From Catajapyx aquilonaris (lineage: Eukaryota), in assembly GCA_000934665.2 (NCBI GenBank), contig JYFJ02002245.1:1-60269 (forward strand): a stretch of DNA of 60,269 nucleotides. Reading direction: 5' to 3'. The first letter of the stretch is position 1. Every line of letters starts with the position of its first letter. This document shows positions 29,932 through 60,144 of the stretch, piece by piece. A program made the translations under genes and the position numbers. Below the pieces are notes generated by a model. That model did no database searches and was not told the DNA's origin. It saw only the letters and a program-made list of their open reading frames with translations.

Positions 29932-31217
29932 TTAATATGCATAAACTTTAATCTTGTTGTTTGCTGCCTGGAACTGAGCACAGCCCTCTGGGCTCGCGTC
30001 CAGCTTGCTGCAACAGTAGAGATAAAGGTACCGGAGGTTGTGGCATCTCCTCACCAGGTCTATGAGCGGGGATTTGGTGACCTCGTTGCTTCCCACCAAG
30101 CAGAAATCAGTCAGGAGAGGGCAGTTCATGGCAATGGCTGATATGCAACTGTCGTCAAGAATTGAGGAATAATAAAGGTAGAGCTTCTGCAGGCTACCCA
30201 CGACGTTCGGCTTGGAGAAAAATCTCTGCAGACCTTGTGCAGTGCAGGAGACGAAATTTATCAGGGTCAAGCTACGGAGGTTGTGCAGTTTCCCAATCCC
30301 GTCTTCCAGGCCAGCATCAGTTAGGTTCTCGCAGGATTGAAATTTCAGCTCCTCCAGCTGAGGGAAGTGTGCGAGGAGAAGGAAGGACTCCGGATTAATG
30401 AAGTGTTCGACCGTCAGTTTCCTCAGTTGGCCCCCTAGAGTGCAGCCGAGCACATCCACTTCCCTGTCAGCCATTTCCATGAGAAGCGACATACAGGTGA
30501 GTTTCAGCCAGTTTCTCCCAGTGGCCATGTCCGATGGTGGAGGAAACTCATCGCCAGATATGGTTATATCCTCCAGTTCCGGACAGGAATTCAAAATGTC
30601 CAGGGGATGCCTCGAATACTTGAGGCATAATATGCGGATGCGCTGCAGTTCACTGCACCTGCGTTGTAAAAATTAAATAACGAAATGTTGATAAATGACA
30701 CTTTAGGAGCCACTTCCCCCAAATATTAGTGTGTTATACTTACTTTCGTGTGATCAGTACCAGCATCTTCTGTGACACCACACTATCATGAATAATGAGG
30801 CCCTCCAGATGAGGAAGATTCTCCACTACGACTTTCTGCAGCGAATAAGCCTCCGCTCCATACCAGTTCATCAAAGTAACCGACTTCAGATGGGTTATGT
30901 TGCTGGTGACCACCTGCACCGTTTCCTCCAGAGTGAAGTGCTCGCGGTCAAAGGTCGCCTTATTCCTAATAAACCACTCCGTAGCCACCCTGCACCAATC
31001 CTCGCACACCAGTGGGACGGTGGTAAGGAGGGATTTCTTTGGCAGGTAGGAGAACACATTCGCCTTCATCTCGTCTGGCAGGTCGGCAAAGGTCTTGACG
31101 CTATCCTGCAATTGTCAAGATATTGCATATGTAAAAAGAGTAATGATCATTTTTAAGTGCAGGTATTGCGTGTCTGGGGCAGCCCCAGTTGGCTTCATGT
31201 CACCCTGCACTCACCAT
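29932..31217 (-). CDS. F-box/LRR array copy 1; exons ending ATG at 31215, 31105-30744, 30658-29932
   Basis: F-box FADLPDEMKANVFSYL..VCEDW, Cys-LRRs, conserved phase-0 and phase-2 GT-AG introns, open frame. Confidence 0.85.
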
Positions 31218-31534
31218 GGCTTCCACTTGACAGTGTCGCTGCCTTCCCTTGCTGTCCACCTTCCTCCTTGGCTTCTCCACCACTCTGCACAACAGGTGAA
31301 CAGGAGGACCCTCTTTGTCTTGGTGGAACTTGTCTTTGTCTCCTCAGCGATCCATCCAAAAAATTCGCTCGCCAACCCCCGTTGCCAAATTTCCCCCCTT
31401 TCGAAAACTTGCAGAACCCGGTTAAACCCTAAAAAATAGTGCAATAATACAAGATAATTAATCCAAATTGCATTTTGCAGGTTACATTAATTATGACAGT
31501 TCCTTTTTAGTGCAAATAATCCGAAATTTTGGTT

Positions 31535-31632
31535 GCGTCCGGATTTGCCGTGACGCGTTCTGTGGGTGTGTCCGAATATGGGCAGAAGGAACGGACCGGA
31601 AGCATAGGTCGGAACGCACCCAAGATGGCGGC
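31535..31632. promoter_or_regulatory. Conserved promoter-like block upstream of array copies; also at 33615-33710, 40399-40510, 50491-50587, 56216-56317
   Basis: CpG-rich gcgtccgga..gtgacgcg..gtgtccgaatat..ggaacgcacccAAGATGGCG. AAGATGGCG matches the YY1/Pho consensus. Lies 5' of exon 1. Confidence 0.55.
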
Positions 31633-31823
31633 TTGAGTTATCCATGAAAATTATATGCTATAATATTAATTTCTGGCCCTAATTAGAGCTCCTGCAGGGC
31701 GCCTGATGATCGGGACACTATGTTCATATTTCGTGAGCATAATAGGAGTTACATTCTCAGTAATTAGGGAAGCACTTGACCGCACATTTATCGTCCATTA
31801 CTGTTCTGTACTTTACGAACTCA

Positions 31824-33298
31824 TTACACGATGGAAATTTGGAGTGTGCTGCTGGCCGCCCGGAACTGACCCAGGGCCTCTGTGCTCAGCTTGTTGCACC
31901 AGATCAGCTGAAGTCGCCTGAGGTTGTGGCACCTCCTCACCAGGTCAAGGAGCGGGGCGTTGGTGACCTCGTCTGTTCTCTCCAAGCAGAGATGAGTCAG
32001 ACGAGGGCAGTTCGCAGCAATGGCTGATATGCAATTGTCGTCCAGAGTTGGGCAATGAGAAAGGCTGAGCGTCTCAAGGCTGCCGACAACGTTTGGCTTG
32101 GATAAAAACGCCTGCAACCCTTGTGCAGTGCAGTCGGATAAGTACAGCAGGGTCAAGCTACGGAGGTTGCGCAGTTTCCCAATCCCATCATGCAGAGCAG
32201 CGTCGGTTAGGTCACCACAGTATTGGATCTGCAGCTCCTCCAGCTGAGGGAAGCACCCAACGAGAAGGTAGGATTCTTGCTCACGGAATAAATCGATGCA
32301 GAGCTTCCTCAGCTGGCCCCCAAGAGTGCGGGCGAGCACTTCCACTTCCCTGTCTGCGCTGTCCATGATAAGAGACATTCTGGTGAGTTTCGGCCAGTTA
32401 CTCCCAGTGGCCATGTCCGATGGTGGAGGAAACTCGTCGCCAGATATGGTTATATCTTCCAGTTCCCAACAGGAATTCAAAATGTCCAGGGGATTCCTTG
32501 AATAGTTCAGGCATTCTAGATCGATGTGCTGCAGTTGGCTGCACCTGTGTCATAAAAATTAAATCATGAACTGAATGAAAAATGGTGCATTAAGCACTAC
32601 GTTCACCAAAAATACGCCCGTTACTTACTCTAGTGCAATCAGTTCCAGCATGTTCTGTGACACCGAGGTAACATCAACATTGAGATGCTTCAGATGAGGA
32701 AGATTTTGGGCTACTACTTTCAGCAGGGAATCTGAATCCTCTCCCTCCCAGTCAATCAGAGCAACTGACTTCAGACGGGTCCTGTTGCTGGTGACCACCT
32801 GCACCGATTCCTCCAGAGTGAAGAGCCAAAAGTCAAAGATCGCCTTATCCCTAAGGCCCAGCCACTCCGTAGCCACCCTGCACCAATCCTTGCACACCAG
32901 TGCGATGCTTGTACGGAGGGTATCATCCTCCAGGTACGAGAACACCTTTGCCTTCATCTCGTCAGGCAGGCTGGCAAAGGTCTTGATGCTAGTCTGAAAT
33001 TATCGTAATGATCATTTTCAGCACAGGTATCTTGTGTCTGGGCAGACCCGTCACCGAGATAATTAGCTTCATGTCACCCCGCACTCACCATGGCTTCTAC
33101 TGGACAATGTTGCTGGTTGCTGCCTGCCCTGTTTTCCACCTTTCTCCTTGGCTTCTCCTCCATCCCCCTGCCCATGTCCACCCTCCTTCTCTTCATGGCC
33201 CTCGTCTCCACAGTGTTCCTTCCCTTCTCCTCGGCCTCCCTCACCATCTTCGTCCTTCCAGTCTCCATCAATCCCCCTTCTTCCTTCCAACCTTCCAA
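31824..33298 (-). CDS. F-box/LRR array copy 2; exons 33298-33089, 32993-32629, 32544-31824
   Basis: Basic exon 1 (MKRRRV, NLS-like), F-box LPDEMKAKVFSYL, LRR exon, open frame. Confidence 0.88.
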
Positions 33299-33889: not shown

Positions 33890-34045
33890 ACTCATTGCAC
33901 GATGGAAATTTGGAGGGTGCTGCTGGCCGCCCGGAACTGACCCAGAGCCTCTGCGCTCAGGTCCAGCTGGCTGCAACTGATGAGCTCAAGGTGCCAGAGG
34001 TTGTGGGATCTCCTCACCAGCAGGGTGTTGGTGACCTCATCGCAT
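33890..34045 (-). pseudogene. Truncated 3' fragment of an LRR exon
   Basis: Homologous to 31824-31970 with deletions. Confidence 0.7.
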
Positions 34046-34310
34046 CTCACGCATCTGCGCCATCATTAATTCATTTGCCCTGATAAAGCTCGCACCAGAT
34101 TGTCCCCCAAAAAGGGCACTGACCTACAGCAAGGGGCTGTGAAATAAAAAAATAAAAGGGAACCGGCCGCATATTGATCATTTTCAATCATTACCACACA
34201 TTGCTTTAATGTCAATTCCAGGCGTACACTTTCAATACAGCCAAATGCGCATTGGGTGTACAAATTATCCCTGGTCATTCGACATGTGGATTCAGAATGT
34301 AAATTAAATA

Positions 34311-34542
34311 TAATAAATGGATACCCCGTGATAGGCCCCTTGGGCCGCTTAGGGGATCATCTTTTAAATAACCGACTTTAATCATTTGCCTGTAATGTGA
34401 TGGATTTTGATAGTGGGAGGAAACGGGAGAACCCGTCGAAACTCTATCCACATAAGTATATCCTCCGTCCGACCCGGGGATCGAACTCGGGACCTTAGAG
34501 GTGGAAGGCTGAGGCGCTAACCACTCCGCCACTGTGTCACCC
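34311..34542 (-). mobile_element. tRNA-derived SINE with 16-bp target-site duplication
   Basis: Minus-strand A box TGGCGGAGTGG and B box GAGTTCGATCC. Flanked by gaatgt(a/c)aattaaata at 34295 and 34543. Empty site at about 47030. Confidence 0.8.
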
Positions 34543-35662
34543 GAATGTCAATTAAATAAGGCACTGCAATCAGGCAAAGTATTGCAATCACAAGTTTAAC
34601 GAAAGTGACAATCAGTATGTACTATTAACCGCAAATGTAATGCAAATGGAACCACTAAAGGGATATGACCTGCCAAAATGACACGTAATTTTAATCGCAA
34701 TATTTTCTGGAGGTTATCTGCAGGTTCAGCGTTACATTGTAGAATTTAAAGCTACATTTTACATGTATGTGGGACGCATAATTAGAGAAATTATCTGGTT
34801 ATTGTAAACATCAGAATGGGAAAGTTCCCATTTTTTTACCTCGTCATTTCTCGTGACCCATAGCGGTTATCTTGTTAGAAAAATATGTCCCTGTGACCTT
34901 GACAAAATACGATCCTAAGTGCCAAATGTCGATTGTCTAGAGGAAAAAAATAATGTTGGGTGAACCGGTGAACCTAGTTGTATGATCTCACATGGAATTA
35001 CCCAAACTAGAAATAAAGTTGCACGAATAAGTAGTGCCGCCCTCAAACAGATACCAGGACTGTGCGGCCACTTGCGGGGACCATGCGGCCAAGGGACCGC
35101 GGCCGTGACCGGTGAGCAGAGGGTTGTGGATTCCGGACCATCGCCAAATAAACATATCCGTAACCTGCCAGCCCCCAGGATTACCAACGCATAAACACAA
35201 AAGCACATAAACAGTCGCGACATTACTTTTGCAGTTGATAGTACAGTACAACATAAGAAATGAATACTGGCCATGAAAACTGTCTGTTTCAAAAAGTAAG
35301 ATTATCTCGTAACAACTCAACCATCCTTACACATTGCAAATTCTATTAGGATTAGGATTAGCGTAACTGACGCAACAAACCTTGCCAAGTTGCGCCAGTT
35401 ACGACTTTCATATCTCGACTATTCCATGGCTCTGCTGCTATCTGGCAGCACAACGTTGCCATGCGCCTTCTTCGTCTGACAAAATGACATAATGATCTGC
35501 TTTGAATAAGTCATAGCCACCTCACAAGGGGCGACTGAATATTTGGATAGTGACTCTTCCGGAATGGAATTACCCTCCACCATAAGGGCTGTCCTTTTTT
35601 TTTTTTGGTTCATGTGCAACATGAAACTCTTAGGATGTGACGTTGTATCTGTGAGTGATGCG

Positions 35663-36972
35663 TCAATCAGGTGGAATCAGGCTGATGCATAAAATTTGAA
35701 GCTTGCTGTTCACAGCCTGGAACTGACCCAGGGCCTCTGCACTCACGTCCAGCTTCATGCACCACTTGAGTTGGAGGCGTTGGAGATTGCGGCACCTCCT
35801 CACCAGATCTAGGAGCGGGGCGTTGGTGACCTCGTGGCATTCCATCAAGTAGAAATGAGTCAGGAGAGGACAGTTTGCAGCAATTGCCGATATGCAACTG
35901 TCGTCCATAGTTGAGGAATCAAAAAGGCTGAGCTTCTGAAGGCTGCCGACCACGTTGGGCTTGGAGAAAAACCTCTGCAAACCTTGTGCAGTGCAGTGGT
36001 AGGAGTATCGCAGGGTCAAGCTACGGAGGTTGTGCAGTTTCCCAATCCCGTCTTCCAGGCCAGCATCAGTTAAGTGGAGGCAGAATTGGATTTCCAGCTC
36101 CTCCAGCTGAGGGAAGTGTGCGAGGAGAAGGAAGGACTGCGGCCTACTGAAGTATCCAACGATCAGTTTCCTCAGCTGGCCCCCAAGAGTGCGAGCAAGC
36201 ACTTTCACGTCCTTGTCTGTGTCGTCCATGGGGCAAAGCGACAAGCTCGTGAGCTTCGGCCAGTTTCTCCTGGTGACCTTGTTTGATGGCGCAGTAACCA
36301 CATAGCCAGATATGGTTAGATCCTCCAGTTTCTGACAGGACTTCAAAATGTCCAGGGGATGCCTCGAATAGTCACCCCAGCAGTAGGTGTCCAGCTGGAT
36401 GCGCTGCAGTTCACTGCACCTGTGATGTAAAAATTAAAATAATGAGCTAATGACACTTTAGGAGCTACTTCCCCCCAAAATTAGCGGGTTACTTACTCTC
36501 GTGTTATCAGTTTCAGCATATTCCATGACAGCGAGGTATTATGAATACTGAGGCGCCTCAGATGAGGAAGATTCTCGGCTACTACTTTCAGCAGCGAGGT
36601 ACAATCCTGTCCAAACCAGTTGATCATAGTAACCGACTTCAGATGGGTCCTGTTGCTGATGACCACCCGCACCGATTCCTCCCGAGTCAAGTCCCGACGG
36701 TCAAAGGTCACGTTATCCCTAACACCCAGCCACTCCGTAGCCACCCTGCACCAATCCTCGCACACCAGTATGATGATCGTACGGAGGGTCTTCTCTGGCA
36801 GGTAGGAGAACACCTTTGCCTTCATCTCGTCAGGCAGGTTGGCAAAGGTCTTCGCGCGGGCCTGCAATTGCAAAGGAATTGCTTATGTAAAAAAGAGTAA
36901 TGATCATTTTTTCAAGTACAGGCATTGCGTGTCTGGGGCAGCTGGCTTCATGTCGTATCCCGCACTCACCAT
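35663..36972 (-). CDS. F-box/LRR array copy 3; exons ending ATG at 36970, 36861-36497, 36419-35663
   Basis: F-box plus LRR exons open, conserved splice sites. Confidence 0.85.
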
Positions 36973-37029
36973 GGCTTCTACTGGACAATGTTGCTGGCTG
37001 CTGCCTTCCTTGTCCTCCACCTTCCTCCT

Positions 37030-37870
37030 ACGGAGTATTCCAGAGTGGCATTCCTCCAGGCAAAGACAAGTCAGGAGAAGGCAGTTCATGGCAATGGCTG
37101 ATGTGCAACCATCGTCCAGTGTTCGGCAATGAGAAAGGCTGAGCTTCTCAAGGCTACCCACAATGTTCGGCTTGGAGAAAAATCTTTGTACAGCCTGTGC
37201 AGTGCAGGACCTGAACGTTCCCAGGGTCAAGCTGCTATGGTTGCGCAGTTTCCCCATCCCGTCTTCCAGGCCAGCATCAGTTAAGTACTGGCAGGATTGG
37301 ATTTCCAGCTCCTCCAGCTGAGGGAAGTGTGCGAGGAGAAGGAAGGACTGCGGCTCATTGAAGGATTTAACCGTCAGTTTCCTCAGCTGTCCCCCCAAAG
37401 TACAGGCGAGCACCCCCACTTCCCTGTCTGCGTTGTCCATGGTAAGAGACACGTCGGTGAGTTTTGGGCAGTCTTGCCCGGTGGCCTTGTCTGATGGCGG
37501 AGGGATGTCCAGTGGATTCCTCAAGTAATATTATTCATCCTGTTGAAACAGCTCAGGTCGATTTCCTGTTGTTCGCTGCACCTGTGTCGTAAAAATAAAA
37601 GGAATGAACTGGCGATAAATGACACTTAACGCACCATATCAACCGTCCTTCACTCACTTTTGTGCAATCAGTTCCAGCATCGGCTGACGGTCAGCACTGG
37701 TGCGGTCACCCCAAAGCCATGCAGATGATACCAACACATATTTTCATTTTATTTTTCACCTTTTCCCGTGGCTTCTCTTCCATCCCCCTGCCCATGTCCA
37801 CCCCCTTCCTCTTCATGGCCCTTGTGTCCACAGTGTTTCAACCCTTCTCTTCAGATTCTGGCTTAACAAA
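37030..37870 (-). pseudogene. F-box-less, 3'-truncated LRR copy fused to exon 1 of copy 3
   Basis: ORF 36904-37524 reads from LRR into RRKVEDKEGSSQQHCPVEAM. Frameshift near 37530. F-box exon deleted. Confidence 0.75.
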
Positions 37871-38559: not shown

Positions 38560-40048
38560 TTAGGATACGTGACGCCGAGTGATGCGGTGCCCAGGTGCAG
38601 AAATGCGGAGGGTGCTGCTGGCCGCCCAGAACTGACCCAGGGCCTCTGCTCTGAAGTCCACCTTCCCGCAGTTGTTGAGTATGAGGTGCTGGAGGTTGCC
38701 GCATCGCCTCACCAGGTCAAGGAGCGAGGCATTGGTGACCTGGCTGCTTCTCATCAAGTAGAATTCAGTCAGGAGAGGGCAGTTCATGGCAATGGCTGAT
38801 ATGCAACTGTCGTCCACAATTGAGCAACGACCAAGGCTGAGCTTCTCCAGGCTACCCACAACGTTAGGCTTGGAGAAAAAAAATTTTAAAGCCTGTGCAG
38901 TGCAGGAGGGGAACTGGTACAGAGTCAAGCTACGGAGGTTGTGCAGTTTCCCAATCCCATCTTCCAGGCCAGCATCAGTTAAGTGGAGGCAGGAATATAA
39001 TTTCAGCACCTGCAGATGAGTGAAGTGTGCGAGGAGAAGGAAGGACTGCGGCTTCTTGAAGGATTCAACAGTCAGTTTCTTCAGCTGGCCCCCCAGAGTA
39101 CAGGCGAGCACCTCCACTTCCCAGTCAGCGTTGTCCATGAAAAGCGACACGTTGGTGAGCTTCGGCCAGTTTCTCCCGGTGACTTTGTTCGGTGGCAGAG
39201 AAACCTCAACGCCAGATATGATTATTTCCTCCAGTTCCCGACAGGAATTTAAAATGTCCAGGGGGTGTCTAGAATAGTCACTCCAGTGGAGGGCTCCTAG
39301 GTAGATGCGCTGCAGTTCACTGCACCTGCGATATAAAAATTAAATAATGAACTGATGGTAAATGACACTTTAGAAGCTACTTTAACCAAAAATTATCAGG
39401 TGACTTACTCTTGTGCAATCAGTTCTAGCACATTTTGTGACACCCGAGGTGACCCCAAATAATTGCTATAAATACTGAGGCGCTTCAGATGAGGAAGATT
39501 CTCGGCTACTACTTTCAGCAGCGAATCATGATCCTCTTCACTCCAGTTTCCCCTCAAAGTAACCGACTTCAGATGGGTCCTGTTGCTGGTGACCACCTGC
39601 ACCGATTCCTCCAGAGTGAAGTGCATGCGGTCAAAGGTGGCCTTACGCCTAATACCCATCCACTCCTTGGCCACCTTGAACCAATCCTTGCACACCAGCG
39701 TGCTCCTGTAGAAAGATTCCACGTCCAGGTACGAGAACACCTTTGCCTTCATCTCGTCAGGGAGGTGGGCAAAGGTCTTGACACTGGCCTGCAAAGAACA
39801 AAAATCAGTGCCACAGTTCCAGGCAAAAGGGTGATGGTCAGCACTGGTGCGGTCACCCCAAAGCCATGCACGTGACACCAGCATTTTTTTTTTTTTCTAT
39901 TTTATTTCACCTCTCCCTGTGGCTCCTCTTCTTCCTCCATCCCCCTGCCCATGTCCACCCTCCTTCTCTTCATGGCCCTCGTCTCCACCGTGTTCCAAGC
40001 CTTCTCTTCAGCATCCCTCACCATCTTCATCCTTCTGGTCTCCATCAT
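38560..40048 (-). CDS. F-box/LRR array copy 4; exons 40048-39911, 39788-39409, 39325-38560
   Basis: Open spliced frame, F-box HLPDEMKAKVFSYL..VCKDW, LRRs. Confidence 0.85.
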
Positions 40049-43056: not shown

Positions 43057-44280
43057 TTAAAAAGGATAAATTTGAACCTTGCTGTTCGCTGCCTGGAACT
43101 GAACCAGGGCCTCTGGGCTCAGGTCCAGCTTGCTGCACTGGTTGAGCTCAAGGTGGCGGAGGTTGCTGCATCTCCTCACCAGGTCTAGGACGGAGGCGTT
43201 GGTGACCCCGTTGGTCTTCACCAAGTTGAAATGAGTCAGAAGAGTGCAGTTCATGGCAATGGCTGATATGCAACTGTCGTAAAGAGCTGAGCAATAAGAA
43301 AGGCTGAGCTTCTCCAGACTACCCACAACGTTTGACTTGGAGAAAAACCTTTCTAAAGCCCAAGGAGTGCAGGACAGGAACATTCCCAGGTTCAACCTAC
43401 GAAGGTTGTGCAGTTTCCCAATCCCTTCTTCCAGGCCAGCATCAGTTATGTGGAGGCAGCATTGGACTTCCAGCTCCTCCAGCTGAGGGAAGTGTGCGAG
43501 GAGAAGGAAGTACTCCGGATTATGGAAGCATCCAAGCGTCAGTTTCCTCAGCTGGCCCCCTAGAGTGCAGGCGAGCACCTTCACTTCCCTGCCAGTCAAG
43601 CTGTCCATGAGAAGCGACATCGTAAAAATTAAATAATGAACTGATGATAAATTGACACTTTAGGAGCTACTTTCACCAAAAATTATTGGGTTACTTACTC
43701 ACGTGTGATCAGTTCTAGCACATTCTGTGACACGTAAGTATCACGAATACTGAGGCGCTTCAGCTGAGGAAGATTCTGGGCTACTACTTTCATCAGCGAA
43801 TCAGCCTCCTCTCCCTCCCAGTTCCTCAAAGTAACCGACTTCAGATGGGTCCTGTTGCTGGTGACCACCTGCACCGATTCCTTCAGAGTGAAGTGCTGAC
43901 GATCAAAGATCGCCTTGCCCCGAAGATCCAGCCACTCCGTAGCCACCTTGCACCATTCCTTGCACACCAATGCGATGCTCGTACGGAGGGTATCAGCGAA
44001 TTAGAATTTGCTACACTCCGGTCTATCAAAGTAACCCATTTCAGATAGGCCCTGCTTCTCTTGATCATACACACCCATTCTTTCGGAGTCAATTTCTGGC
44101 CGTCCAAGGTCGCCTTCTTCCTGAGACCCAGCCATTTCTGGGCCACCCTGCACCAGTCCTTGCACACCAGTGCGACACTCATCGTACGGAGGGTATTCTC
44201 CTTCAGGTCCCAACCCTTCTCTTCAGCTTCTCTCAGCATCTTAAGCTGGCTTAACAACAAACTAGTCACATACGCCATCA
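43057..44280 (-). pseudogene. F-box/LRR array copy 5, broken
   Basis: The LRR-exon acceptor and first codons are deleted at 43620. Two partial F-box exons are joined out of frame near 43990. Confidence 0.75.
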
Positions 44281-45230: not shown

Positions 45231-46533
45231 TCAATCAGGTGGAATCAGGCTGATGCATAAAATTTGAAGCTTGCTGTTCACAGCCTGGAACTGACCCAGG
45301 GCCTCTGCACTCACGTCCAGCTTCGTGCACCACTTGAGTTGGAGGCGCTGGAGATTGCGGCATCGCCTCACCAGGTCTAGGAGCGGGGCGTTGGTGACCT
45401 CGTGGCATTCCATCAAGTAGAAATGAGTCAGGAGAGGGCAGTTTGCAGCAATTGCCGATATGCAACTGTCGTCCACAGTTGAGTAATTCATAAGGCTGAG
45501 CTTCTCAAGGCTGCCGACCACGTTGGGCTTGGAGAAAAACCTCTGCAAACCTTGTGCAGTGCAGTGGCAGGTGTATCGCAGGGTCAAGCTACGGAGGTTG
45601 TGCAGTTTCCCAATCCCATCTTCCAGGCCAGCATCAGTTAAGTACAGGCAGAATTGGATTTCCAGCTCCTCCAGCTGCGGGAAGTGTGCGAGGAGAAGGA
45701 AGGACTGCGGCTTATTGAAGTATCCAACGATCAGTTTCCTCAGCTGGCCCCCGAGAGTGCGAGCAAGCACTTTCACTTCCCTGTCTGTGTCGTCCATGGG
45801 GCAAAGCGACAAGCTGGTGAGTTTCGGCCAGTTTCTCCTGGTGACCTTGTTTGATGGCGCAGTAACCACATAGCCAGATATGGTTAGATCCTCCAGTTTC
45901 TGACAGGACTTCAAAATGTCCAGGGGATGCCTCGAATAGTCACCCCAGCGGTAGGTGTCCAGCTGGATGCGCTGCAGTTCACTGCACCTGTGTTGTAAAA
46001 ATTAAAATAATGAGCTAATGACACTAGCTACTTCCCCCAAAAATTAGCCGGTTACTTACTCTCGTGTGATCAGTTGCAGCATATTCCGTGACACCGAGGT
46101 ATTATGAATACTGAGGCGCCTCAGATGAGGAAGATTCTCGGCTACTACTTTCATCAGCGAAGCAGCATCCTTTCCTTTCCAGTTCCTCACAGTAACGGAC
46201 TTCAGATGGGTCATGTTGGTGATGACCACATGCACCGATTCCTCCCGAGTCAAGTCCAGACGGTCAAAGGTCACCTTATCCCTAACACCCAGCCACTCCG
46301 TAGCCACCCTGCACCAATCCGCGCACACCAGTATGACGCTCCTACGGAGGGTCTTCTCTGGCAGGTATGAGAACACCTTTGCCTTCATCTCGTCAGGCAG
46401 GTCGGCAAAGGTCTTGACGATGGCCTGCAATTGTCAAGAGATATGTAAAAAGAGTAATGATCATTTTTTCAGGTACAGGTATTGCGTGCCTGGGGCAGCC
46501 CCAGTTGGCTTCATGTCACCCTGCACTCACCAT
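45231..46533 (-). CDS. F-box/LRR array copy 6 (recent duplicate of copy 3); exons ending ATG at 46531, 46424-46060, 45987-45231
   Basis: Open frame. The LRR ORF has the same length as copy 3 and is nearly identical. Confidence 0.85.
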
Positions 46534-47949: not shown

Positions 47950-48330
47950 CAAAGATGTCCAGTGGATTCCTCAAGTAATTATTCGTCCTGTCGAAACGGC
48001 TTAGGTCGATTTCCTGTAGTTCGCTGCACCTGTGTCATAAAAATAAAAGGAATGAACTGGCAATAAATGACACTTAACGCACCATATCAACCCTCCTTTA
48101 CTGACTTTTGTGCAATCAGTTCCAGCATCGGCTGATGGTCAGCACTGGTGCGGTCACCCCAAAGCCATACAGATGACACCTACACATATTTTAATTTTAT
48201 TTTTCACCTTTTCCCGTGGCTTCTCCACCTCCCTGCCCATGTCCACCCTCTTTCTCTTCATGGCCCTTGTCTCCACAGCGTCACAACCCTTCTCTTCAGC
48301 TTCTGGTTTAACAACAAGCTAGTTACATCC
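47950..48330 (-). pseudogene. Exon-1 plus partial LRR-exon remnant lacking the F-box exon
   Basis: Paralogous to 37500-37870. Confidence 0.65.
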
Positions 48331-48784: not shown

Positions 48785-50088
48785 TTATAATGCAGAAATT
48801 TGAACCTTGCTGTTCGCTGCCTGGAACTGAGCCCAGGCCTCTGGGCTCAGGTCCAGCTTGCTGCACCACCAGAGATGAAGGCCCTGGAGGTTGCGGCATC
48901 TTCTCACCAGGTCTAGGAGCGGGGCGTTGGTGACATGGTTGTTTCTCACCAAGCAGAAATGAGTCAGGAGAGGGCAGTTTGCAGCAATGGCTGATATGCA
49001 ACTGTCGTCAAGAGTTGAGCAATAAGAAAGGCGGAGATTCTCAAGGCTGCCGACCACGTTGGGCTTGGAGAAAAACCTTTGTAAACCCTGTGCAGTGCAG
49101 GAGGGGATCTCCGATAGGATCAAGCTACGTAGGTTGTGCAGTTTCCCAATCCCGTCTTCCAAGGCAGCATCAGTTAGGTACTCGCAGTATTGGATTTCCA
49201 GCTCCTCCAGCTGAAGGAAGTGTGCGAGGAGAAGGAAGCACTCCGGATTGGTGAAGTAATCAACCTCCAGTTTCCTCAGCTGGCCCCCCCAGAGTAAAGG
49301 CGAGCACCTCCACTTCCCTGTCAGGGTTGTGTCTGAGAAACGACACGCTGGTGAGTTTCGGCCAGTTTCTCCCGGTGATCTTGTTCGATGGCGGAGTAAC
49401 CACTTTGGCACATATGGCTATTTCCTCCAGTTCCCGACAGGAATTCAAAATGTCCATGGGAGGCCTTGAAAAGTAATTCATGCCGACTATATCTAGGTAG
49501 AAGTGCTGCAGTTCACTGCACCTGTGTTGTAAAAATTAAATAATGAACTGATGATAAATGACACTTCAGGAGCTACTTCCCCCAAAAATTAGCGGGTTAC
49601 TTACTCTTGCGCAATCACTTCCAGCATATCCTGTGACACCGGGGAATTATAAATACTGAGGCCCTTCAGATGAGGAAGATTCTCGGCTACTACTTCCAGC
49701 AGCGAGTCACCATCCTCTCCATACCAGTTCCTCAAAGTAACCCACTTCAGACGGGTCCTGTTGCTGGTGACCACCTGCACCGATTCCTCCAGTGTTAAGT
49801 CCAGATGGTCTAAGGTGGCCTTACGCCTAATACCCAGCCACTCCTTGGCCACCCTCAACCAATCTTTGCACACCAGCGTGCTCCTGTAAAGGGATTCCTT
49901 CTCCAGGTACGAGAACACCTCTGCCTTCATCTCATCAGGCAGGCTGGAAAAGGTCTTGGCGCTATCCTGCAATTGTCAAGAGATTGCTTGAGTACGTAAA
50001 AAGAGTTATAATTATTTTTTCAAGTACAGGCATTGTGTGTCTGGGGGGGCAGCCCCAGTTGGCTTCATGTCCACCCTGCACTCACCAT
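48785..50088 (-). pseudogene. F-box/LRR array copy 7 with a +1 frameshift in a C run (pseudogene or sequence error); exons ending ATG at 50086, 49966-49605, 49521-48785
   Basis: C7 at 49284-49290 versus C6 in copy 4. The frame switches at TLGG|QLRKL; otherwise intact. Confidence 0.75.
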
Positions 50089-50877: not shown

Positions 50878-52452
50878 ATGCCCACTTGCGGGATACCATT
50901 CTGCAGGTCCGGCTATGCTGGCACAACAGCAAAAAACAAGTGGAAAGGGATTCGCCATCCGTCACTTTTCAGACCAAAAAGTCAGGTACGTAAACACGTG
51001 TGTGGCTGCACCCAACTGAAATATTATTAAGAGTATTATTGCACTTGGAATAACAGCCATCGTTGTTACTTTCTTGGCTTCTATAAGCTTATCTACCTTA
51101 ACTTCGTGTGGAAGGAAAGGGGCTATTGAACCTTACGACGGAGGGAGGGAAATACATAATTTTTTCTCGTTTCAATGCAAACTTATCAGTTACGTAGGTT
51201 ACATTCAGTAAGGTATGTAGTCTGCGAGTTATTGACCAGTGCTCCAGATATTTTCCTTTTTGGTCGTGACGAGATGATCGGGAGAACCGCAAGTTCCACA
51301 AATTTTAGTTCAGCTTCTCTCCTAGGCTCTGGGAAGTTCGGGGGTAGGTCACGGAGGGTAGGCAGTAAGAGTCCCAGGGAAATGTCGTGATGGTGATCAT
51401 GATGATGAGGTTTGAACATTAACCTAACATTTTCTTCTACACTATAGATCCACAACTGAAGTGACAAAGACATGCACAAGCATATGTATATCGTCAGGTC
51501 GTGACTCAATGCAGGCCTTTGATAATTAGGAGTGAAGAAATAACATCCGGAAACAGAATGAAAACTTTGTTATGCATCTCATTATGTGCAAGACGCTAAC
51601 ACCGATCTTTACTATTTGCAGGATGAAGCTGACAGGTGGAACAGAAGGGCAAAGGTTGATCCTCCACTGACACTGAAAACATCTGTGTGTGGACTGCATT
51701 TCAGGGAGGAGGACATTAGAAGTCCATGCGACACGATAACAATAAAACCCGGCATCCGAGACAGGGAGGGTAATGTGGTCCCTCAAGGAACAGTTGTAGC
51801 GACGTTAAGTAGGGTAAAGAAATCCTTGGTACCAGGAGCTGAACCATGTATATTTGAAGGGTATCCACAATACCTGCTGAATCGGCCTCCGCAACGAAAG
51901 AGGAAAGCACCAAAAGTCCGCAATGCCACAGGCATTTAAAAAATTGCACTTCCACATCCCCAACTACCTCTTCCCACGGTCGCTGCTGAAAGTGACACAC
52001 GGATCCATGAACTGCAAGCACCCCAATCTGATGAATCTGTGGCCGGTGGGAATGGTGTTCCTTGGTCAACAGAAAAAGTGAAAATGTAAATGCGAAACCC
52101 TCAATGGAACACATTTGAGTTTGACAATCACGTGGCAATAATTCATCTCACGCCGAAACTCGTTATGGACAAGACAATTACCATTCAAGGAAACAAGCCT
52201 CCCATCGTAACTATAAATGGAGTGGAAGTTATTCAAGGGACCGCAAACAATGTGAAAACTGTGGAAGAGGTGTCGAAACTGCTGGAGAAGTTGGAAGAGA
52301 CGAGAGCCTGCATTGGAACTGGGTTACGGAACAATCAATTCAGCTTCTCTTGCTCAGGTGCTGTGGAGTCAAAGTGTAGACGAAGATGTGACCAGTGCAT
52401 GCTCTTGAAGGAAAGGGAAAGGAAATTGTCTGACAGGATAAAAAGAAAATGA
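50878..52452 (+). mobile_element. THAP-domain gene / truncated P-element-like transposase N-terminus, copy A; exons 50878-50985 and 51622 onward, stop at 51939 with degraded continuation
   Basis: Spliced MPTCGIPFCRSGY...SLFRPKSQ|DEADRW...VCGLHFREEDI...SLVPGAEPCIFEGYPQYL gives the C2CH THAP signature with an AVPTIF-like box. No catalytic domain seen. Confidence 0.8.
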
Positions 52453-54614
52453 AAAAAACATGCGGGTGCAAAGGAGAGGTGGCAGGATGAGATCACTAGC
52501 CGGAGCAAAGAAAACCTGCTACAGACTGTAAGTGATCGACATTCCAAATTTTATTTTTTTCATGTTAGCCCTGGTCATGCTACGGCATTTATTTTGTGTA
52601 AAACTGGAGTCTAGTGTCCCCCAAAAAGGGAACTGCCCTAGCAAGGGGCTGTGAAATAAATAAATAAATAAAACGGAACTAGCAGCACATTAATCATTTT
52701 CAATCATTACCGCACATTGCGTTAATTTCAATTCCAGGCGTACATTTACAATCCAGCCAAATGCGCATTGGTGTACAAACTATCGCTGGTCATTCATCAT
52801 GTGGATTCAGACACCACGCAGTATGGCTGTGAGTGTCAATAGAATAAGGCACTGCAATCCTGCGAAGTATTGCAAGCACAAGTTTAACAAAGCGACAAAC
52901 GGTACGTTGGGAAAGTACAACATAAGAAATTAATACTGGCCATGAATACTGGCATTGTCTCGTCTCTAAAAGTAGATTAGTGACAGCCTGTTCATGTTCA
53001 TATTTTCAGGAGGAATTAGGATCAGCGTAACCAAGAGCTAGCTAGTAATAATAAACAATCAGCGCAGCGATGCTCATCGCACATTGAAACGCTCACATGT
53101 AAAGGCGGCATTATTATCATGTCTGGCCTTTTTTACAACAATATTATGTCACATCGGATGTGATTGGTTGGGAATAAGGGTTGGAGAATATCACAGTGCT
53201 GCAAAGAACTGCAAGCAGGTTGGCACGATAAACACAGAAAGTATCTTTCAGTTACATTTCTTGTTGTGTACCAACACATTAATCTTATTACAACGTAAAT
53301 CATGGCTGTTCATACGTACATAGATGAACCAGAAGGACAACATAGCTTGTCTGAACTAGTGTTTAAGCATGTGCAAGGTCACATCTTTGCTTTGGATTAC
53401 CCTGAAACTGGATTCAGGACTTGGTGGATTTAACCCGTATGGCAATGATATGAGAATCAATTTGTGCAATGTTTGATTATTCAGAAGTTCACTCCAGATA
53501 AAACCGACTTCATGGGCCTGCAAAAAAAAAAGGCTGTTATAACCTAGATCTGTTATATAGCCAAACCGCCACTTTTTGGAACACATATACACATGTTATC
53601 TACCTGCTGTATGGCTATATTGCACACTAGGCCTACTGCAGACTGATTAATGAGAACGATCCACTAAAATAGCTCACCCGTAAATTATGCAGTACCCAAA
53701 TAATCAGCCATTTTCTTTTGCCGTCTCCTTTTTGCCAAATATACCAGGAAAATTGTTGCAATGTCAGTGGTAAATGGGACAACCACCCTCGCTCCAGCAT
53801 GCAGTGTTTTCCTACGTGTGAGAAATGGGCAATCGAAAGCAGCATATTTTCCCTCCCAGCCTCCCAGGGGCTTAGAAATTGTCTGTTATAGTCGCAGACA
53901 TGAGGTGATAAATGAGTCTGCTATAAGTTTTGAGGAATAAAAATACACAGGACGGCAGGGCCTTATGGAAGTATGCCGAAAGCTGCCTTGAGACTCTGTT
54001 ATAGGCAAGGCTATGATAGTAACCTGTAGTATCCTGACCAACCAGTATGTTATTACTCTTATTAGGTGCTACGCTCTGGTCAGGAATGACAATTCAATAC
54101 AACAACAACAATACAATATCAGAAAAGGGTCTCAAAAAGGGCACTGCCCTAGCAAGGGGCTGTGAAATAAATAAATAAATGGAAGGGAACTGGCCGCACA
54201 TTAATCATTTTCAATCGTCACCGCATATTGCTTTAATTTCAATTCCAGGCGTACATTTTCAATACAGCCAAACGCTCATTCGGTGTACAAACTATCGCTG
54301 GTCTTTCAACATGTGGATTCAGACCTATCGCAGTGATTGGCAATTAAATAAGGCACTGCAATCCTGCAAAGTATTGCAAGCACAAGTTTAACAAAAGTGA
54401 CAAACAGTGTGTTGGGAAAGTACAACATGAGAAATTAATACTGGCCATGAATACTAAGTGTTTCAAAAAGGAGATTAGTGACAACTTTTAACCTTAAGAT
54501 TATCTCGTAACAACTCAACCATCCTTACGCATTTCAAATTCCTACAGATCATGAGTTTCACTTCAAACTCATTTCATCCACCGTAAGGGCTGTAAAATTA
54601 CTTTTTTTGTTTGT

Positions 54615-55808
54615 TCATGTGCGACATGGATTTCTTAGGATTTGAAGCTTGCTGTTCACGGCCTGGAACTGACCCAGGGCCTCTGCTCTCAGGTCCAGCT
54701 TCCAGCACCACTTGAGTTGGAGGTACTGGAGATCGTGGCACCTCCTCACCAGGTCTAGGAGCGGGGCATTGGTGACCTCGCAGGTACTCAACAAGCAGAG
54801 ATGAGTGAGACGCGGGCAGTTTGCAGCAATGGCTGATATGCAATTGTCATCCACAGTTGGGAAATCCTCAAAACTAAGTTTCTCAAGGCTGCCGACCACG
54901 TTTGGCTTGGAGAAAAACATCAGCAAACCTTGTGCAGTGCAGCGGGAGGCGTATCGCAGGCTCAAGCTGCGGAGGTTCCGCAGTCTTCCGATCCCATCGT
55001 TCAGGCCAGCATCGGTCAAGTAAGTACATGTGATATTCAGCTCCTCCAGCTGCGGGAAGTGTGCGAGGAGAAGGAAGGACTCCAGCTTACGGAATCCACT
55101 TGTGAGTTTCCTCAGCTGGCCCAGAGTGTGGGCCAACAGCTCCACTTCCCTCTCGTCCTCGTGTGTTTGAAGTGACAGTTCGGTGAGTTTCGGCCAGTTT
55201 CTCCCAGTGGCCTCGTTCGATAGTGGAGGTAACAACACATTCCTTATGGTTATTGTTGCTAGTTCGTGGCAGGAACTCACAACGTCCAGGGGATGCTTGG
55301 AGTACTCTTCTTTCCAATAGAAAGTTTCTAGGTGGATGCGCTGCAGTTGGCTGCACCTGCGTCATAAAAATTAAAATAATGAACTGATGATCAATGATGC
55401 TTTATGCACTACGTTCACCAAAAATCCGCCGTTTACTTACTCTCGTGCAATCAGTTCCAGGACATTCTGTGACACCGGGGAACGACGAACACTCAGCCAC
55501 TTCAGATGAGGAAGATTCTCAGCTACTGCTTTCATCAATGAATCACCAATCACTCTACAATTCCAATTCATCACCGTAACTGACTCCAGATGGTTCTTGT
55601 TGCTCGTGATCATCTGCACCGATTCCTTCAGAGTCAAACGCCGACCGTTCAATACCATCCTCTTCCTAAGCCCCAGCCACTCCCTGGACACCCTGAACCA
55701 ATCCTTGCACACCCGCGTGCTATTATCGAGGGATTCCCAGTCCAGGTACGAGAACACCTTAGCCTTCATCTCGTCAGGCAGGCTGGAAAAGGTCCAGAAA
55801 TTGCGCAT
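54615..55808 (-). CDS. F-box/LRR array copy 8; exons 55808-55441, 55356-54615
   Basis: F-box and LRR exons are open. The normal acceptor is deleted, but an in-frame ATG lies at 55808. Confidence 0.7.
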
Positions 55809-56569
55809 GTAAACAAGTAATATTCTTTTAAAGTACAGGTATTGTGAGTCTCTGCGGCCCAGTCACCGAGGTAATTAGCTTCATGTCATCCCGCACTCAC
55901 CTTTGCTTCCACTCGACAACGTAGGTTGATGCCTCCCATGGCCCCACACGAGCCTCCTTCTCCTCCCGAGTCTTGGCCTCAGCTTCTGGTCTTCCTGTTG
56001 CCTTCCCCTAGCCCACATCCTGGGCACCCAACCCACCAGCAATAATCTGAAAAGGAAATCAGTGCAACTTGTGGCGGTCTGGATATTTCCTCGTAATGGA
56101 ACGGATCCGGTTGAACCGGACAAATGGTGCCCAATCATGCAATTCCAGATTTGCACATTACATTAATTAATGGTTGCTCATTACCTGACATTCATTATCA
56201 TCATAATTATGGGCTGCGTCCGGATTTGCCGTGACGCGCATATTATGTGGTTGTGTCCGAATATGATGAGAAAGGGAACGGACCGGATGCGGCGGTCGGA
56301 ACGCACCCAAGATGGCGTCTCATGTTGATTGATTTAGCTCGATTTAGCTCAATTGATTTGCACGGCCTTTTGGCACGGGTTTTGCACTATCGAAGAGTGG
56401 GACATGGTTTGCAAGATTGTACATGATCCAGTTCGACCACTCCACAAGCCCTAGGGGCGCACGATAGTAATGTACTAACAACAGTCCTACCATCTGGCAT
56501 GTGCCTCTTTGGTATGTCAAACGTGTGGAAATGAAGATATTAATTTTTGTGGTCCTTGCATTACAGTAA

Positions 56570-58105
56570 ATTCCCAGGTGCCGGATACCATTCTGCAGGT
56601 CCGGCTATGCTGACCCAAGAGCAGAAAACAAGAGAAAAGGGATTCGCAATCCGTCACTTTTCAGACCAAAAAGTCAGGTACGTAAACACGTGTGTAGCTG
56701 CACCCAACTGAAATATTATTAAGAGTATTATTGCACTTGGAATAACAGCCATCGTTGTTACTTCCCTGGCTTCTAAGCTTATCTACCTTAAATTCGTGTG
56801 GAAAGAAAAGGGCTATTGAACCTTACGACCGAGGGAGCGAAATACATAATTTTTTCTCGTTTCAATGCAAACTTATCAGTTATGTAGGTTATGTTCAGTA
56901 AGGTTTGTAGTCTGCGAGTGATTGACCTGTGCTCCAGATATTTTCCTCTTGAGATGATCGGGAGAACCGCAAGTTCCACAAATTTTAGTTCAGTTTCTCT
57001 CCTAGGTTCTGGGAAGTTCGTGGGTAGGTCACGGAGGGTAGGTAGTAAGAGTCCCTTGTAGGGAAATGTCGTGCGTGAATAGCGTGATGGTGATCATGTA
57101 TAGATCGACAACTAAAGTGACAAAGACATGCACAAGCATATGTATATCGTCAGGTCGTGACTCAATGTAGGCCTTAATAAACATAACAGCCAGAAACAGA
57201 ATGAAATCTTTGTTGTGCATCTCATTATGTGCAAGACACTAACACAGAGCTTTACTATTTGCAGGATGAAGCTGTCAGGTGGAGCAGAAGGGCAAAGGTT
57301 GATCCTCCACTGACACTGAAAACATCTGTGTGGGAAGTGCATTTCAGGGAGGAGGACGTTAAAAGTCCATGCGACACGATAACAATAAAACCCGGCGTCC
57401 AAGACAGGGAGGGTAATGTGGTCCCTCGAGGAACAGTTGTAGCGACGTTAAGTAGGGTTAAGAAAACCTTGGTACCAGGAGCTGAACCATGTATATATTT
57501 TGAAGGGTATCCACAATACCTGAATCGGCCTCCGCAACTAAAGAGGAAAGCACCAAAAGTCCGCAAAAATATTGCACTTCAACAGCCAGCTGTGGCCTCA
57601 ACTGCCCCACCCATTCCCCAACTACCCCACGGCCGCTGCTGAAAATGACACACAGATCCATGAAGCACCCCAATCTGATGAACCTGCTGCCGGTGGGAAT
57701 GGTGTTCCTTGGTCAACAGAAAAAGTGAAAAGGTTGAAAATGCGAAACCCTCAATGGAACACATTTGAGTTTGACTATCACATGGCAATAATTCATCTCA
57801 CACCGAAACTCTTTACGGACAAAACAATTACCATTCAAGGAAACAAGCCTCCCATCGTAACTATAAATGGAGTGCAAGTTATTCAAGGGAGCGCAATAAA
57901 CAATGTGAAAACTGTGGAAGAGGTGTTGAAACTGCTGGAAAAGCTGGAAGAGACGAGAGCCTGCATTGGAACTGGGTTACGGAACAAGCAATTCAGCTTC
58001 TCTTGCTCAGGTGCTGTGGAGTCAAAGTGTGGACGAAGATGCGACCAGTGCATGCTCCTGAAGGAAAGAGAAAGGAAATTGTCTGGCAGGATAAAAAGAA
58101 AATGA
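56570..58105 (+). pseudogene. THAP/P-element-like copy B, degraded
   Basis: Paralogue of 50878-52452. ATG lost, VCGLHF changed to VWEVHF, frameshift near 57600. Confidence 0.75.
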
Positions 58106-58941
58106 AAAAGAAAGATGCGGGTGCAAAGGAGAGCTGGCAGGATGAGATCACTAGCCACATTCCAAATTTTTTATTTTTCATGTTAGCCCTGGTCATGCTA
58201 CAGCATTTATTTTGTACGAACTGGAGTCTAGTGTCCCCCAAAAAGGGCACTTCCCTAGCAAGGGGCTGTGAAATAAATGAATATAAAAATAAAAGGGAAG
58301 TGGCTGCATATTGATCATTTTCAATCATTACCGCATATTGCTTTAATTTCAATTCAAGGCGTACATTCCCAATACAGCCAAATGCGGATTGGGTGTACAA
58401 ACTATCCCTGGTCATTCAACATGTGGATCACCACGCAGTATGGCAGTGATTGTCAATTAAATAAGGCACTGAGATCCTGCAAAGTATTGCAAACACAAGT
58501 TTAACAAAGCGACAAACGGTACGTTGGGAAAGTACAATAGAAGAAATTAATACTGGCCATGAATACTGACATTGTTTATAAAAGTAGATTAGTGACAGCC
58601 TGTTCATGTTCATATTTTCAGGAGGAATTAGAATTAGCGTAACTGACGCAACAAACCTTGCCAAGTTGCGCCAGTTACAACTATCATTTCTCGACTATTC
58701 CATGGCTCTGCTGCTATCTGGCAGCACAACGTTGCCATGCGCCTTCTTCGCCTGACATAATGACATAATGATTCTGCTTTGAATAAGTCATAGCCACCTC
58801 ACAAGGCCCGACTGAATATTTGAATAATTACTCTTCCGGAGTGGAATTACCCTCCACCATAAGGGCTGTCCATTTTTTTTTGGTTCATGTGCAACGTGAA
58901 ACCCTTAGGATATGACGTTGTAACTGTGAGTGATGCGTCAA

Positions 58942-60144
58942 TCAGGTGGAATCAGGGATATATGCATAAATTTGAAGCTTGCTGTTCAAGGCCTGGAACT
59001 GACCCAGGGCCTCTGCTGTCAGGTTCACCTTCACGCACCAGTTGAATTGGAGGTACCGGAGGTTGCTGCATCTCCTCACCAGGTCTAGGAGCGGGGCTTT
59101 GGTGACCTCTTTGGAACTCAACAGGCAGAAATGAGTCAGACCAGGGCAGTTTGCAGCAATGGCTGATATGCAACTCTCGTCAAGAGTTGAGCAAACCTCA
59201 AGGCTAAGTTTCTCAAGGCTGCCAACCACGTTTGGATTGGAGAAAAACATCTGCCAACCTTGTGCAGTGCAGCCGGTGGCGTATCGCAGGCTCAAGCTAC
59301 GGAGGTTCTGCAGTCTCCCGATCCCATCGTTCAGGCCAGCATCGGTCAAGAAAGTACAACGTGTGATATTCAGCTCCTCCAGCTGCGGGAAGTGTGCGAG
59401 GAGAAGGAAGGACTCCGACTTACTGAATGAACTAATTGCGAGTTTCCTCAGCTGGCCTCCCAGAATGCGGGCCAACTGTTCCCCGTCCCTCTCGCCCCTG
59501 AATGGGGTAAGTGACAGTTCTGTGAGTTTCGGCCAGTTACTCCCAGTGGCCTCGTTCGATAGTGGAGGTAACTCCACATTCCTGATGGTTATTGTTGCAA
59601 GTTCTTGGCAGGAACTCATAATGTCCAGGGGATGCTTGGAGTCCCCTGTATTCCAATAGATATTATCTAGGTGGATGCGCTGCAGTTGGCAGCACCTGTG
59701 TCATAAAAATTAAAATAATGAACTTATGATCAATGATGCCTTATGCAATACATTCACCAAAAATCCGCCGGTTACTTACTCTCGTGCAATCAGTTCCAGC
59801 ATATTCTGTGACATAGAGGTATCACGAATATTGAGACGCTTCAGGTGAGGAAGATTCTCAGCTACTGCTTTCAGCAATGAATCAGCATTCACTATTTTCC
59901 ATTTCTCCACAGTAACTGACTCCAGATGGGTCATGTTGCTCGTGATCATCTGCACCGATTCCTCCAGAGTCAAACCCCGACCGTTCAATGCCAGTCTCTT
60001 CCTTAGACCCAGCCACTCCCTGGCCACCCTGCACCAATCCTTGCACACCAGTACGACACTCATACCGAGGGTATGCTCCCGCAGGTACGAGAACACCTTC
60101 GCCTTCATCTCGTCAGGCAAGCCGGAAAAGGTCTTGACGCTAGC
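58942..60144 (-). CDS. F-box/LRR array copy 9, exon 1 outside the window; exons 60144-59780, 59695-58942
   Basis: Open frame, conserved splice sites. Confidence 0.85.

Follow-up and report, generated by a model that had tools for sequence, protein, structure and literature searches.

A tandem array of F-box/leucine-rich repeat genes with a positively selected repeat surface in Catajapyx aquilonaris

Why would a genome hold a row of closely similar F-box genes whose leucine-rich repeats (LRRs) keep one scaffold and yet differ from copy to copy at the same few residues? The question is raised by contig JYFJ02002245.1 of the Catajapyx aquilonaris assembly GCA_000934665.2, of which positions 1 to 60,269 of the forward strand, the whole 60,269-nt stretch of DNA that we analyzed, are referred to here as the window. 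On its minus strand, positions 29,932 to 60,144 carry paralogous F-box/LRR genes arranged head to tail over about 30 kb, as delineated from a stop-to-stop list of open reading frames (ORFs) and a tblastn search with one member, copy C; the array is bounded by the stop codon of copy A at 29932 and by the first base of exon 1 of copy J at 60144. We are highly confident that these genes form a positively selected F-box/LRR family, and analogy with known systems makes it probable that their products serve as adaptors of Skp1-Cul1-F-box (SCF) ubiquitin ligases. The reading that we favor, with somewhat better than even confidence, is that the array is a lineage-specific birth-and-death family of FBXL-type SCF adaptors whose renewed specificities track fast-changing non-self or selfish targets; taken by itself, the proposal that the targets are non-self or selfish, which is made by analogy, stands a little short of an even chance.

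The array consists of eight gene-length copies with both coding exons (A, B, C, E, G, H, I, and J), two truncated copies (D and F), and three small fragments. Reading frames are open in seven of the eight gene-length copies, the eighth (H) carrying a 1-nt frameshift, and three of the ten copies (D, F, and H) are disabled. A preliminary description, made from the letters of the sequence, had reported at least nine gene-length copies; the repeated array was borne out, but its count was too high, since the ten-entry lists of variable strings that it gave include D and F. The scaffold strings quoted there and the strings after LRKL are all present in the copies, and those after LRSLTL belong to A (INFVS), B (LYLSD), C (RYSYH), D (GTFRS), E (YQFPS), F (GMFLS), G (RYTCH), H (SEIPS), I (RYASR), and J (RYATG). 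Copy A was read base by base and all copies were then compared, giving a gene model of three exons: a 5' exon ending ATG/GTGAGT, followed by an intron of about 100 nt; an exon 1 of about 365 nt ending AA/GTAAGT in phase 2, followed by an intron (intron 2) of 72–85 nt; and an exon 2 of about 240–255 codons.

The duplicates differ in age, with synonymous divergence (dS) of 0.067 between C and G, 0.150 between I and J, and up to 0.53 for older pairs. In self-BLAST comparisons, C and G share 93.5% nucleotide identity across 1686 bp, I and J are 85.7% identical, and A and H are 83.4% identical across 2056 bp, while a 2.6-kb spacer unit is present twice (85.8% identical), once 3' of copy I and once 3' of copy J. 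The fusion of copy D to the 5' exon of copy C and the internal deletions of copy F point to birth-and-death evolution. Such a tandem family had been proposed in the preliminary description, and the mixture of ages, the truncated copies, and the lack of close relatives in protein searches all agree with it.

On sequence profiles and structural models, each array protein appears to be of FBXL type, with an N-terminal F-box and about 13 cysteine-type LRRs. The Pfam F-box-like model (PF12937) matched all 11 exon-1 rows scanned at E<=0.01 (the eight gene-length copies, a divergent paralogue termed K, and two outside relatives), and copy C scored 27.3 bits, above the cut-off of 24.3. The copies share a near-invariant core F-box motif, LPDEMKAKVFSYL...LVCxDW, and residues P10, E12, V33, C34, and W37 are common to the array and the outside relatives. 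In an AlphaFold2 (AF2) model of copy C exon 1 (predicted local distance difference test, pLDDT, 82.5), three helices (residues 11–19, 23–32, and 35–45) stand directly before the first LRR strand and are followed by three strand–helix repeats. The exon-2 model, built from a 14-row alignment (pLDDT 88.2; predicted template modeling score, pTM, 0.88), is a solenoid of 10 strand–helix repeats, for which the best Foldseek match is FBXL2 in its SKP1 complex (6o60_C, E=5.8e-10, TMq 0.76), followed by D3/MAX2, COI1, FBXL17, SKP2, and TIR1. A phmmer search of the PDB likewise placed FBXL2 (1.6e-14) and FBXL17 (2e-11) first. The F-box and LRR architecture named in the preliminary description is therefore upheld by the F-box-like matches in all eight copies scanned and by an exon-2 fold closest to FBXL2. 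Matches in the ESM Atlas were to generic F-box/LRR clusters (scores 0.92–0.95, fewer than 170 shared features), and we take them as a lead consistent with LRRs and nothing more.

Selection was analyzed mainly on a codon alignment of the 7 intact copies (376 codons), with site models implemented in our own Goldman-Yang likelihood program using F3x4 frequencies and naive empirical Bayes (NEB), not Bayes empirical Bayes (BEB), posteriors. When the eight gene-length copies are compared in all 28 pairs, the whole-gene ratio of nonsynonymous to synonymous rates (ω) ranges from 0.55 to 1.09 at unsaturated dS values of 0.067–0.53. A single ratio (M0) gave ω=0.85 with a log-likelihood (lnL) of -5233.10. 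The fit improved to -5133.83 under M1a and to -5081.32 under M2a, in which 42% of sites have ω=0.14, 42% have ω=1, and 16% have ω=4.37; M7 reached -5141.89, M8a -5133.84, and M8, with 18% of sites at ω=4.13, -5081.97. The corresponding values of 2ΔlnL are 105.0 (M1a/M2a), 119.8 (M7/M8), and 103.7 (M8a/M8), with p between 1e-23 and 1e-27. The likelihood ratio test (LRT) of M1a against M2a was significant in all seven variants of the data set, with 2ΔlnL of 33.4 for exon 1 only, 65.9 for exon 2 only, 43.8 for LRR6–11 only, 121.7 with 8 sequences, 134.2 with 10 sequences, 90.5 for a gap-free alignment without the tail, and 97.8 on an alternative, less resolved topology. Sites with dN/dS above 1 had been anticipated in the preliminary description, and the M1a/M2a and M7/M8 comparisons on intact copies did recover a class of sites at ω≈4.

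These sites fall in a regular pattern. Writing the register over 11 repeats as L1xxL4xL6x7x8(C)9x10x11 and pooling the 7 intact copies, we obtained ω of 3.4 at position 7, 0.93 at position 8, 3.2 at position 10, and 5.8 at position 11, against 0.41 at core positions 1, 4, and 6, 0.40–0.57 at positions 2, 3, and 5, and 0.42 from position 12 onward. Position 1 is invariant, and mean entropy over the 11 LRRs is 1.3–2.0 bits at positions 7, 8, 10, and 11 compared with 0.1–0.8 bits at positions 13–26. The contrast between a fixed scaffold and variable positions is far above chance. Under M2a, 22 of the 376 sites have an NEB posterior P>0.95; 16 of them lie inside the LRR register, 14 of these at positions 7, 8, 10, or 11 (14/44 vs 2/242 at other positions), and the remaining six are divided between the F-box region (two) and the C-terminal tail (four). 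When the four most variable positions were learned on odd repeats, they held 5/20 selected sites in even repeats vs 0/108 elsewhere, and the reverse exercise gave 9/24 vs 2/134. In fixed-partition fits, the cross-validated set has ω=2.84 (LRT against ω=1, 80.3), the classical xxLxLxx set defined a priori has ω=1.59 (LRT 16.1), and the helix side has ω=0.53. The fast positions are rich in Tyr (7.0% vs 1.3%) and Trp (3.7% vs 1.2%) and poor in Leu and Ala.

Mapped on the AF2 model, the 15 selected exon-2 sites occupy 7 of 54 strand residues and 8 of 61 residues in loops after strands, with none among 86 helix residues or 50 residues in loops after helices, so that variation is unevenly spread over the modeled structure, as the preliminary description had supposed. 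On this model, the fast stripe corresponds to the C-terminal edge of the concave sheet together with the ascending loops. The more specific proposal that variation marks the ligand-binding concave face holds for the residue that ends each strand and for the ascending loop (positions 7, 8, 10, and 11) but not for the classical concave positions 2, 3, and 5, which are slow.

Transcription of the copies, also expected in the preliminary description, was found for at least two of them. Contigs from run X5 skip exactly 32545–32628 in copy B (joint 32542>32627, cut +2) and 39326–39408 in copy E (joint 39323>39407, cut +2), in both cases with ends CT..AC, which read GT..AG on the minus strand, and neither intron-2 joint is present in DNA run X1. 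These exact skips indicate that copies B and E are transcribed and spliced, and they confirm intron 2. Regions 34569–35235, 40572–42572, and 43240–43906 had no X5 cover.

Several features of the data weigh against the interpretation of the array as a set of selected SCF adaptors. The site models rest on few sequences (7–10), our own implementation, and NEB posteriors; the C-terminal tail, which aligns poorly, accounts for four of the 22 selected sites; and the class of fast positions was first seen in the same data in which it was tested, though it was cross-validated between odd and even repeats. Selected sites were placed by AF2 secondary structure and standard LRR geometry only. The sequencing runs comprise four DNA runs of one sample and X5, a single run of unrecorded library type, with no run recorded as RNA among them, and the contigs give no expression level. 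For the F-box, ω is 0.94 over alignment columns 1–74, with no clear purifying selection, and P>0.95 sites occur within that region at columns 23 and 32; the exon-1 model had no Foldseek match at E<=0.001 (TIR1, FBXL3, SKP2, MAX2, and KDM2A were weak top rows), a phmmer search with exon 1 against the PDB returned nothing meaningful (its sole row, a chance LRR match, had E=0.9), and the Pfam LRR models stayed under their cut-offs for copy C. Finally, the best-matching partner of the older copies shifts along the gene, which implies exchange between copies, a process known to inflate site-model LRTs.

Because of this possible inflation, we turned to a tree-free test on three phylogenetically independent pairs. 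At positions 7, 8, 10, and 11, ω is 2.9 for C-G, 5.1 for I-J, and 4.0 for A-E, compared with 0.55, 0.84, and 0.68, respectively, at the remaining sites. Taken together, the three pairs show 97.8 nonsynonymous vs 7.2 synonymous differences at the fast positions (p=3.7e-4 in a binomial test against neutrality). Intron 2 served as the neutral yardstick, 3'-flank divergence having been dropped because several flanks are non-homologous (Kimura two-parameter distance, K2P, >1), and dN at the fast positions exceeds intron-2 divergence in every pair (0.15 vs 0.043 for C-G, 0.46 vs 0.075 for I-J, and 0.77 vs 0.24 for A-E).

These values bear on the suggestion that the array is a decaying, recently amplified cluster without function, in which high dN/dS reflects lost constraint. 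The high whole-gene pairwise ω of 0.55–1.09 would fit such decay, as would the disabled copies D, F, and H, the loss of the initiator ATG and of an acceptor site in copy I, and the missing canonical 5' exon of copy E. Neutral models are nevertheless rejected by the comparison of M8a with M8, the fast positions evolve at ω of about 3–5 and not about 1, and constraint is plain elsewhere, ω being 0.14 at about 42% of sites and 0.42 from position 12 onward, and register position 1 never varying. Seven frames of about 370 codons have moreover stayed open at dS up to 0.5, and two copies are spliced. We consider decay very improbable.

The F-box results raise another alternative, that the proteins work without Skp1-Cul1 as LRR binding proteins (for example inhibitors, decoys, or scaffolds), with an F-box that is vestigial or re-used. 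The ω near 1 of the F-box region, its two selected sites, and the weak Foldseek hits obtained with the exon-1 model among solved F-box structures are all compatible with this idea; the near-invariant core motif, the five residues shared even with the outside relatives, the F-box-like match in 11 of 11 rows, and the modeled three-helix bundle directly preceding the first LRR strand speak against it, and it seems to us distinctly improbable. High posteriors for ω>1 were also observed at columns 23, 28, and 32 (copy C residues 22, 27, and 31), in the second F-box helix and the loop preceding it; if real, these fast sites might be a sign that the F-box co-evolves with paralogues of Skp1 or with factors that antagonize SCF assembly.

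Relatives of the array outside the window are distant. In an exhaustive search of 1.84 billion representatives, the best identity was 37%, and the best match with the same architecture, P0009, was 31% identical; word-indexed protein searches returned no match for copy C exon 2, one match (E=1.3e-4) for paralogue K, and none for a neighboring channel gene. Of five matches that were looked up, two are cockroach proteins annotated as hypothetical (Diploptera punctata, KAJ9589696.1 and KAJ9586673.1); together with the GMC-oxidoreductase, ligand-gated-channel, CH-domain, and C2H2 genes near the array, they hint at an arthropod origin. The two cockroach proteins and P0009 resemble the array in layout, aligning over most of exon 2 with 31–36% identity over matched stretches, and share the F-box motif and the scaffold motifs LTxQAL..F(L/F)..P and LDDxC(I/L)xAIA, but they are too distant for orthology to individual array members. 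Paralogue K itself, an F-box exon and an LRR exon on the minus strand at 3905..5063, has an F-box-like match at E=1.1e-10 and is about 29–31% identical to the array; its two frames join, by eye, at the aligned position of array intron 2. It sits 25 kb from the array and is no nearer to it in sequence than the outside relatives are, and it may be an older member of the family.

Among characterized proteins, the mammalian FBXL2, FBXL17, and SKP2/FBXL1 share with the array an N-terminal F-box that leads directly into a curved solenoid of cysteine-type LRRs of about 26 residues, FBXL2 being the best match by both sequence and structure (TMq 0.76). Identity is only 20–25%, however, and no orthology to a named FBXL could be shown. 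Mammalian FBXL genes are conserved, single-copy genes with defined endogenous substrates, in contrast to the roughly ten tandem paralogues described here, with ω≈3–5 on one stripe. A different comparison is offered by plant nucleotide-binding LRR receptors and receptor-like proteins (NLR/RLP, with the xxLxLxx motif) and the variable lymphocyte receptors (VLRs) of lampreys, in which diversity lies on solvent-exposed residues around the β-strand and the following loop and copies are clustered and exchange sequence. The array resembles them in its fixed LRR scaffold and focused surface diversity; it differs in that the effector is an F-box, not an NB-ARC or TIR domain, and the protein is not a secreted or glycosylphosphatidylinositol (GPI)-anchored receptor, and also in lacking somatic assembly and in the slow evolution of classical positions 2, 3, and 5.

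The closest parallel in evolutionary pattern is with the Caenorhabditis fbxa/fbxb/fbxc genes, for which PMC8120010 describes tandem lineage-specific expansion with the substrate-recognition domain under positive selection (Thomas 2006 as described in PMC8120010), a proposed anti-pathogen role of nematode SCF adaptors, and far fewer F-box genes in insects and vertebrates. The nematode families are like the array in their lineage-specific tandem expansion and in positive selection on the substrate-recognition module, and unlike it in using FTH/FBA-type domains where the array has LRRs; the same source gives the nematode F-box domain as under purifying selection, which contrasts with the ω of 0.94 of the array's F-box region and belongs among the points, listed above, that weigh against the favored reading. 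A literature search in which subscription journals and supplements lay outside the scope found no arthropod FBXL array of this kind. The array would be a positively selected F-box adaptor family of a kind earlier described in nematodes and plants, here with an LRR solenoid as the recognition module.

Going by FBXL2, SKP2, and FBXL17 as analogues, we expect docking on Skp1-Cul1 through the F-box and capture of the substrate by the LRR solenoid. Each repeat keeps its helix (convex) side and its hydrophobic core constant, while a continuous stripe made up of the residue at the end of the β-strand plus the ascending loop (positions 7, 8, 10, and 11) is driven to change more quickly than silent sites or introns. 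The adaptor specificities would be renewed by duplication, by sequence exchange among copies, and by point substitution, and the proteins marked for ubiquitination may be those of pathogens, viruses, or selfish genetic elements, an idea that we entertain because of the analogy with nematode and plant F-box families. Skp1 binding, E3 ligase activity, and the nature of the targets are all features that we infer from such analogies. A bolder form of the proposal, which we hold as tentative and rather doubtful, is that the array constitutes an intracellular, germline-encoded repertoire of "degradative receptors" in an animal, probably an arthropod, in which a hypervariable LRR surface of VLR/NLR style is wired to an F-box, each paralogue would send a different viral, microbial, or selfish protein to the proteasome, and duplication and exchange would make new specificities.

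The evidence for adaptors and for a selected stripe would also apply if the adaptors diversify against endogenous substrates, dividing up or co-evolving with the organism's own proteins (for example a family of substrates that expands in parallel, or proteins of reproduction or self/non-self recognition; cf. plant SLF/SFBB), with no pathogen or selfish element involved. Nothing within the window ties the array to immunity, and plant tandem F-box arrays (SFBB) are described as serving collaborative non-self recognition. Selection has, though, been sustained on young and old branches alike (the fast-site ω being 2.9 for C-G and 5.1 for I-J), and copy turnover is high, with three of ten copies disabled, a pattern more in keeping with an open-ended arms race than with a single division of fixed substrates; reproductive or recognition conflict may also be at work. 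We regard purely endogenous targets as unlikely, although not to the degree of decay or of a non-ligase role.

Rapidly evolving F-box families have been the main evidence that ubiquitin ligases can serve as an evolvable recognition system, and this evidence comes mostly from nematodes and plants. If the favored reading of viral or selfish targets is true, the array would represent intracellular immunity or genome defense undescribed for arthropods in the literature searched; if the targets are endogenous, it would be a clear case of adaptor–substrate co-evolution. Since the selected stripe comprises the same four register positions in each repeat, it defines a small set of residues for swaps or mutation in a hunt for targets.

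The individual copies, all on the minus strand, are in varied states of preservation. Copy A (29932..31217) is intact on the evidence of sequence, splice sites, and tblastn, with a 5' exon ending in the ATG at 31217-31215, an exon 1 at 31105-30744 holding the F-box and first LRRs, and an exon 2 at 30658-29932 holding further LRRs and the stop codon. Copy B (31824..33091) is likewise intact (ATG 33091; exon 1 32993-32629; exon 2 32544-31824), its intron 2 at 32545-32628 being the first of those confirmed by a spliced contig. Between B and C, a solo C-terminal fragment of exon 2 (33907..34050), corresponding to aa 197-247 of copy C, is matched by tblastn at 57% identity (E=6e-10). Copy C (35663..36972) is intact (ATG 36972; exon 1 36861-36497; exon 2 36419-35663) and was the reference copy for models. 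Copy D (37084..37527) is a pseudogene without exon 1, consisting of an internal exon-2 piece (aa 22-187) joined directly to the 5' exon region of copy C. Copy E (38560..39788) has an open frame through exons 1 and 2 (39788-39409 and 39325-38560), with intron 2 at 39326-39408 confirmed by a spliced contig, and no canonical 5' ATG exon was found for it. Copy F (43057..44206) is a pseudogene that has lost LRR3-4 from exon 2 (aa 69-247 kept) and the start of the F-box from exon 1 (aa 32-130 kept), with a second exon-1 fragment at 44021-44206.

Copy G (45231..46533), a young duplicate of copy C, is intact (ATG 46533; exon 1 46424-46060; exon 2 45987-45231) and is followed at 47951..48043 by a small exon-2 start fragment with a weak tblastn match (E=9e-4). 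Copy H (48785..50088; ATG 50088; exon 1 49966-49605; exon 2 49521-48785) is gene-length with a +1 frameshift, caused by an additional G in a 7-G run near 49290 where the other copies matched have 5–6 G; an X1 contig at 49132-49534 agrees with the window here, and X1 may be the window's own source sample. Copy I (54615..55808; exon 1 55808-55441; exon 2 55356-54615) has an open frame, but the ATG of its 5' exon has become AAG, its exon-1 acceptor is deleted, and a new in-frame ATG stands at 55808. Copy J (58942..60144; exon 1 60144-59780; exon 2 59695-58942) is also open, and its 5' exon lies at or beyond the window end.

Two observations on the sequencing contigs concern variation among copies. 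At 36084-36092 in copy C (positions 8 and 5 of LRR7), a low-depth X5 contig shows three differences within 9 nt, all on fast LRR positions; this variant may be an allele or an unseen close paralogue, and suggests that the selected stripe may be polymorphic. In the X1 DNA contigs, 36690 is joined both to 39654 and to 49826, that is, the exon 1 of one copy passes through 27–33 other letters into another copy, which suggests extra paralogues outside the window or chimeras of the assembly graph.

The spacers between copies hold other elements. A scan of 29000-60269 with Rfam and ARAGORN gave no matches. At about 34320-34560 lies a very high-copy element, with an X1 word depth of about 68,000 compared with about 30–270 in most other bins; by eye it resembles a reverse-complemented short interspersed nuclear element (SINE) derived from tRNA, although ARAGORN and Rfam call nothing there. 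The two copies of the duplicated spacer (50424-53031 and 56146-58643) carry plus-strand ORFs at 51562-52452 and 57205-58105, which look THAP-like by eye (CxxH-F...PGAEPCIF) and had no Pfam match at E<=0.01. In the spacer between E and F, a minus-strand ORF at 41436-41825 encodes a Myb/SANT-like DNA-binding domain (PF13837, E=6.6e-7) and is probably transposon-related. The neighboring genes within 811-23368 include exons for a parvin-like calponin homology (CH) domain, two C2H2 zinc-finger genes, a glucose-methanol-choline (GMC) oxidoreductase, an unassigned ORF pair at 21983-23368, and a single-exon ORF of 720 aa that resembles a ligand-gated channel.

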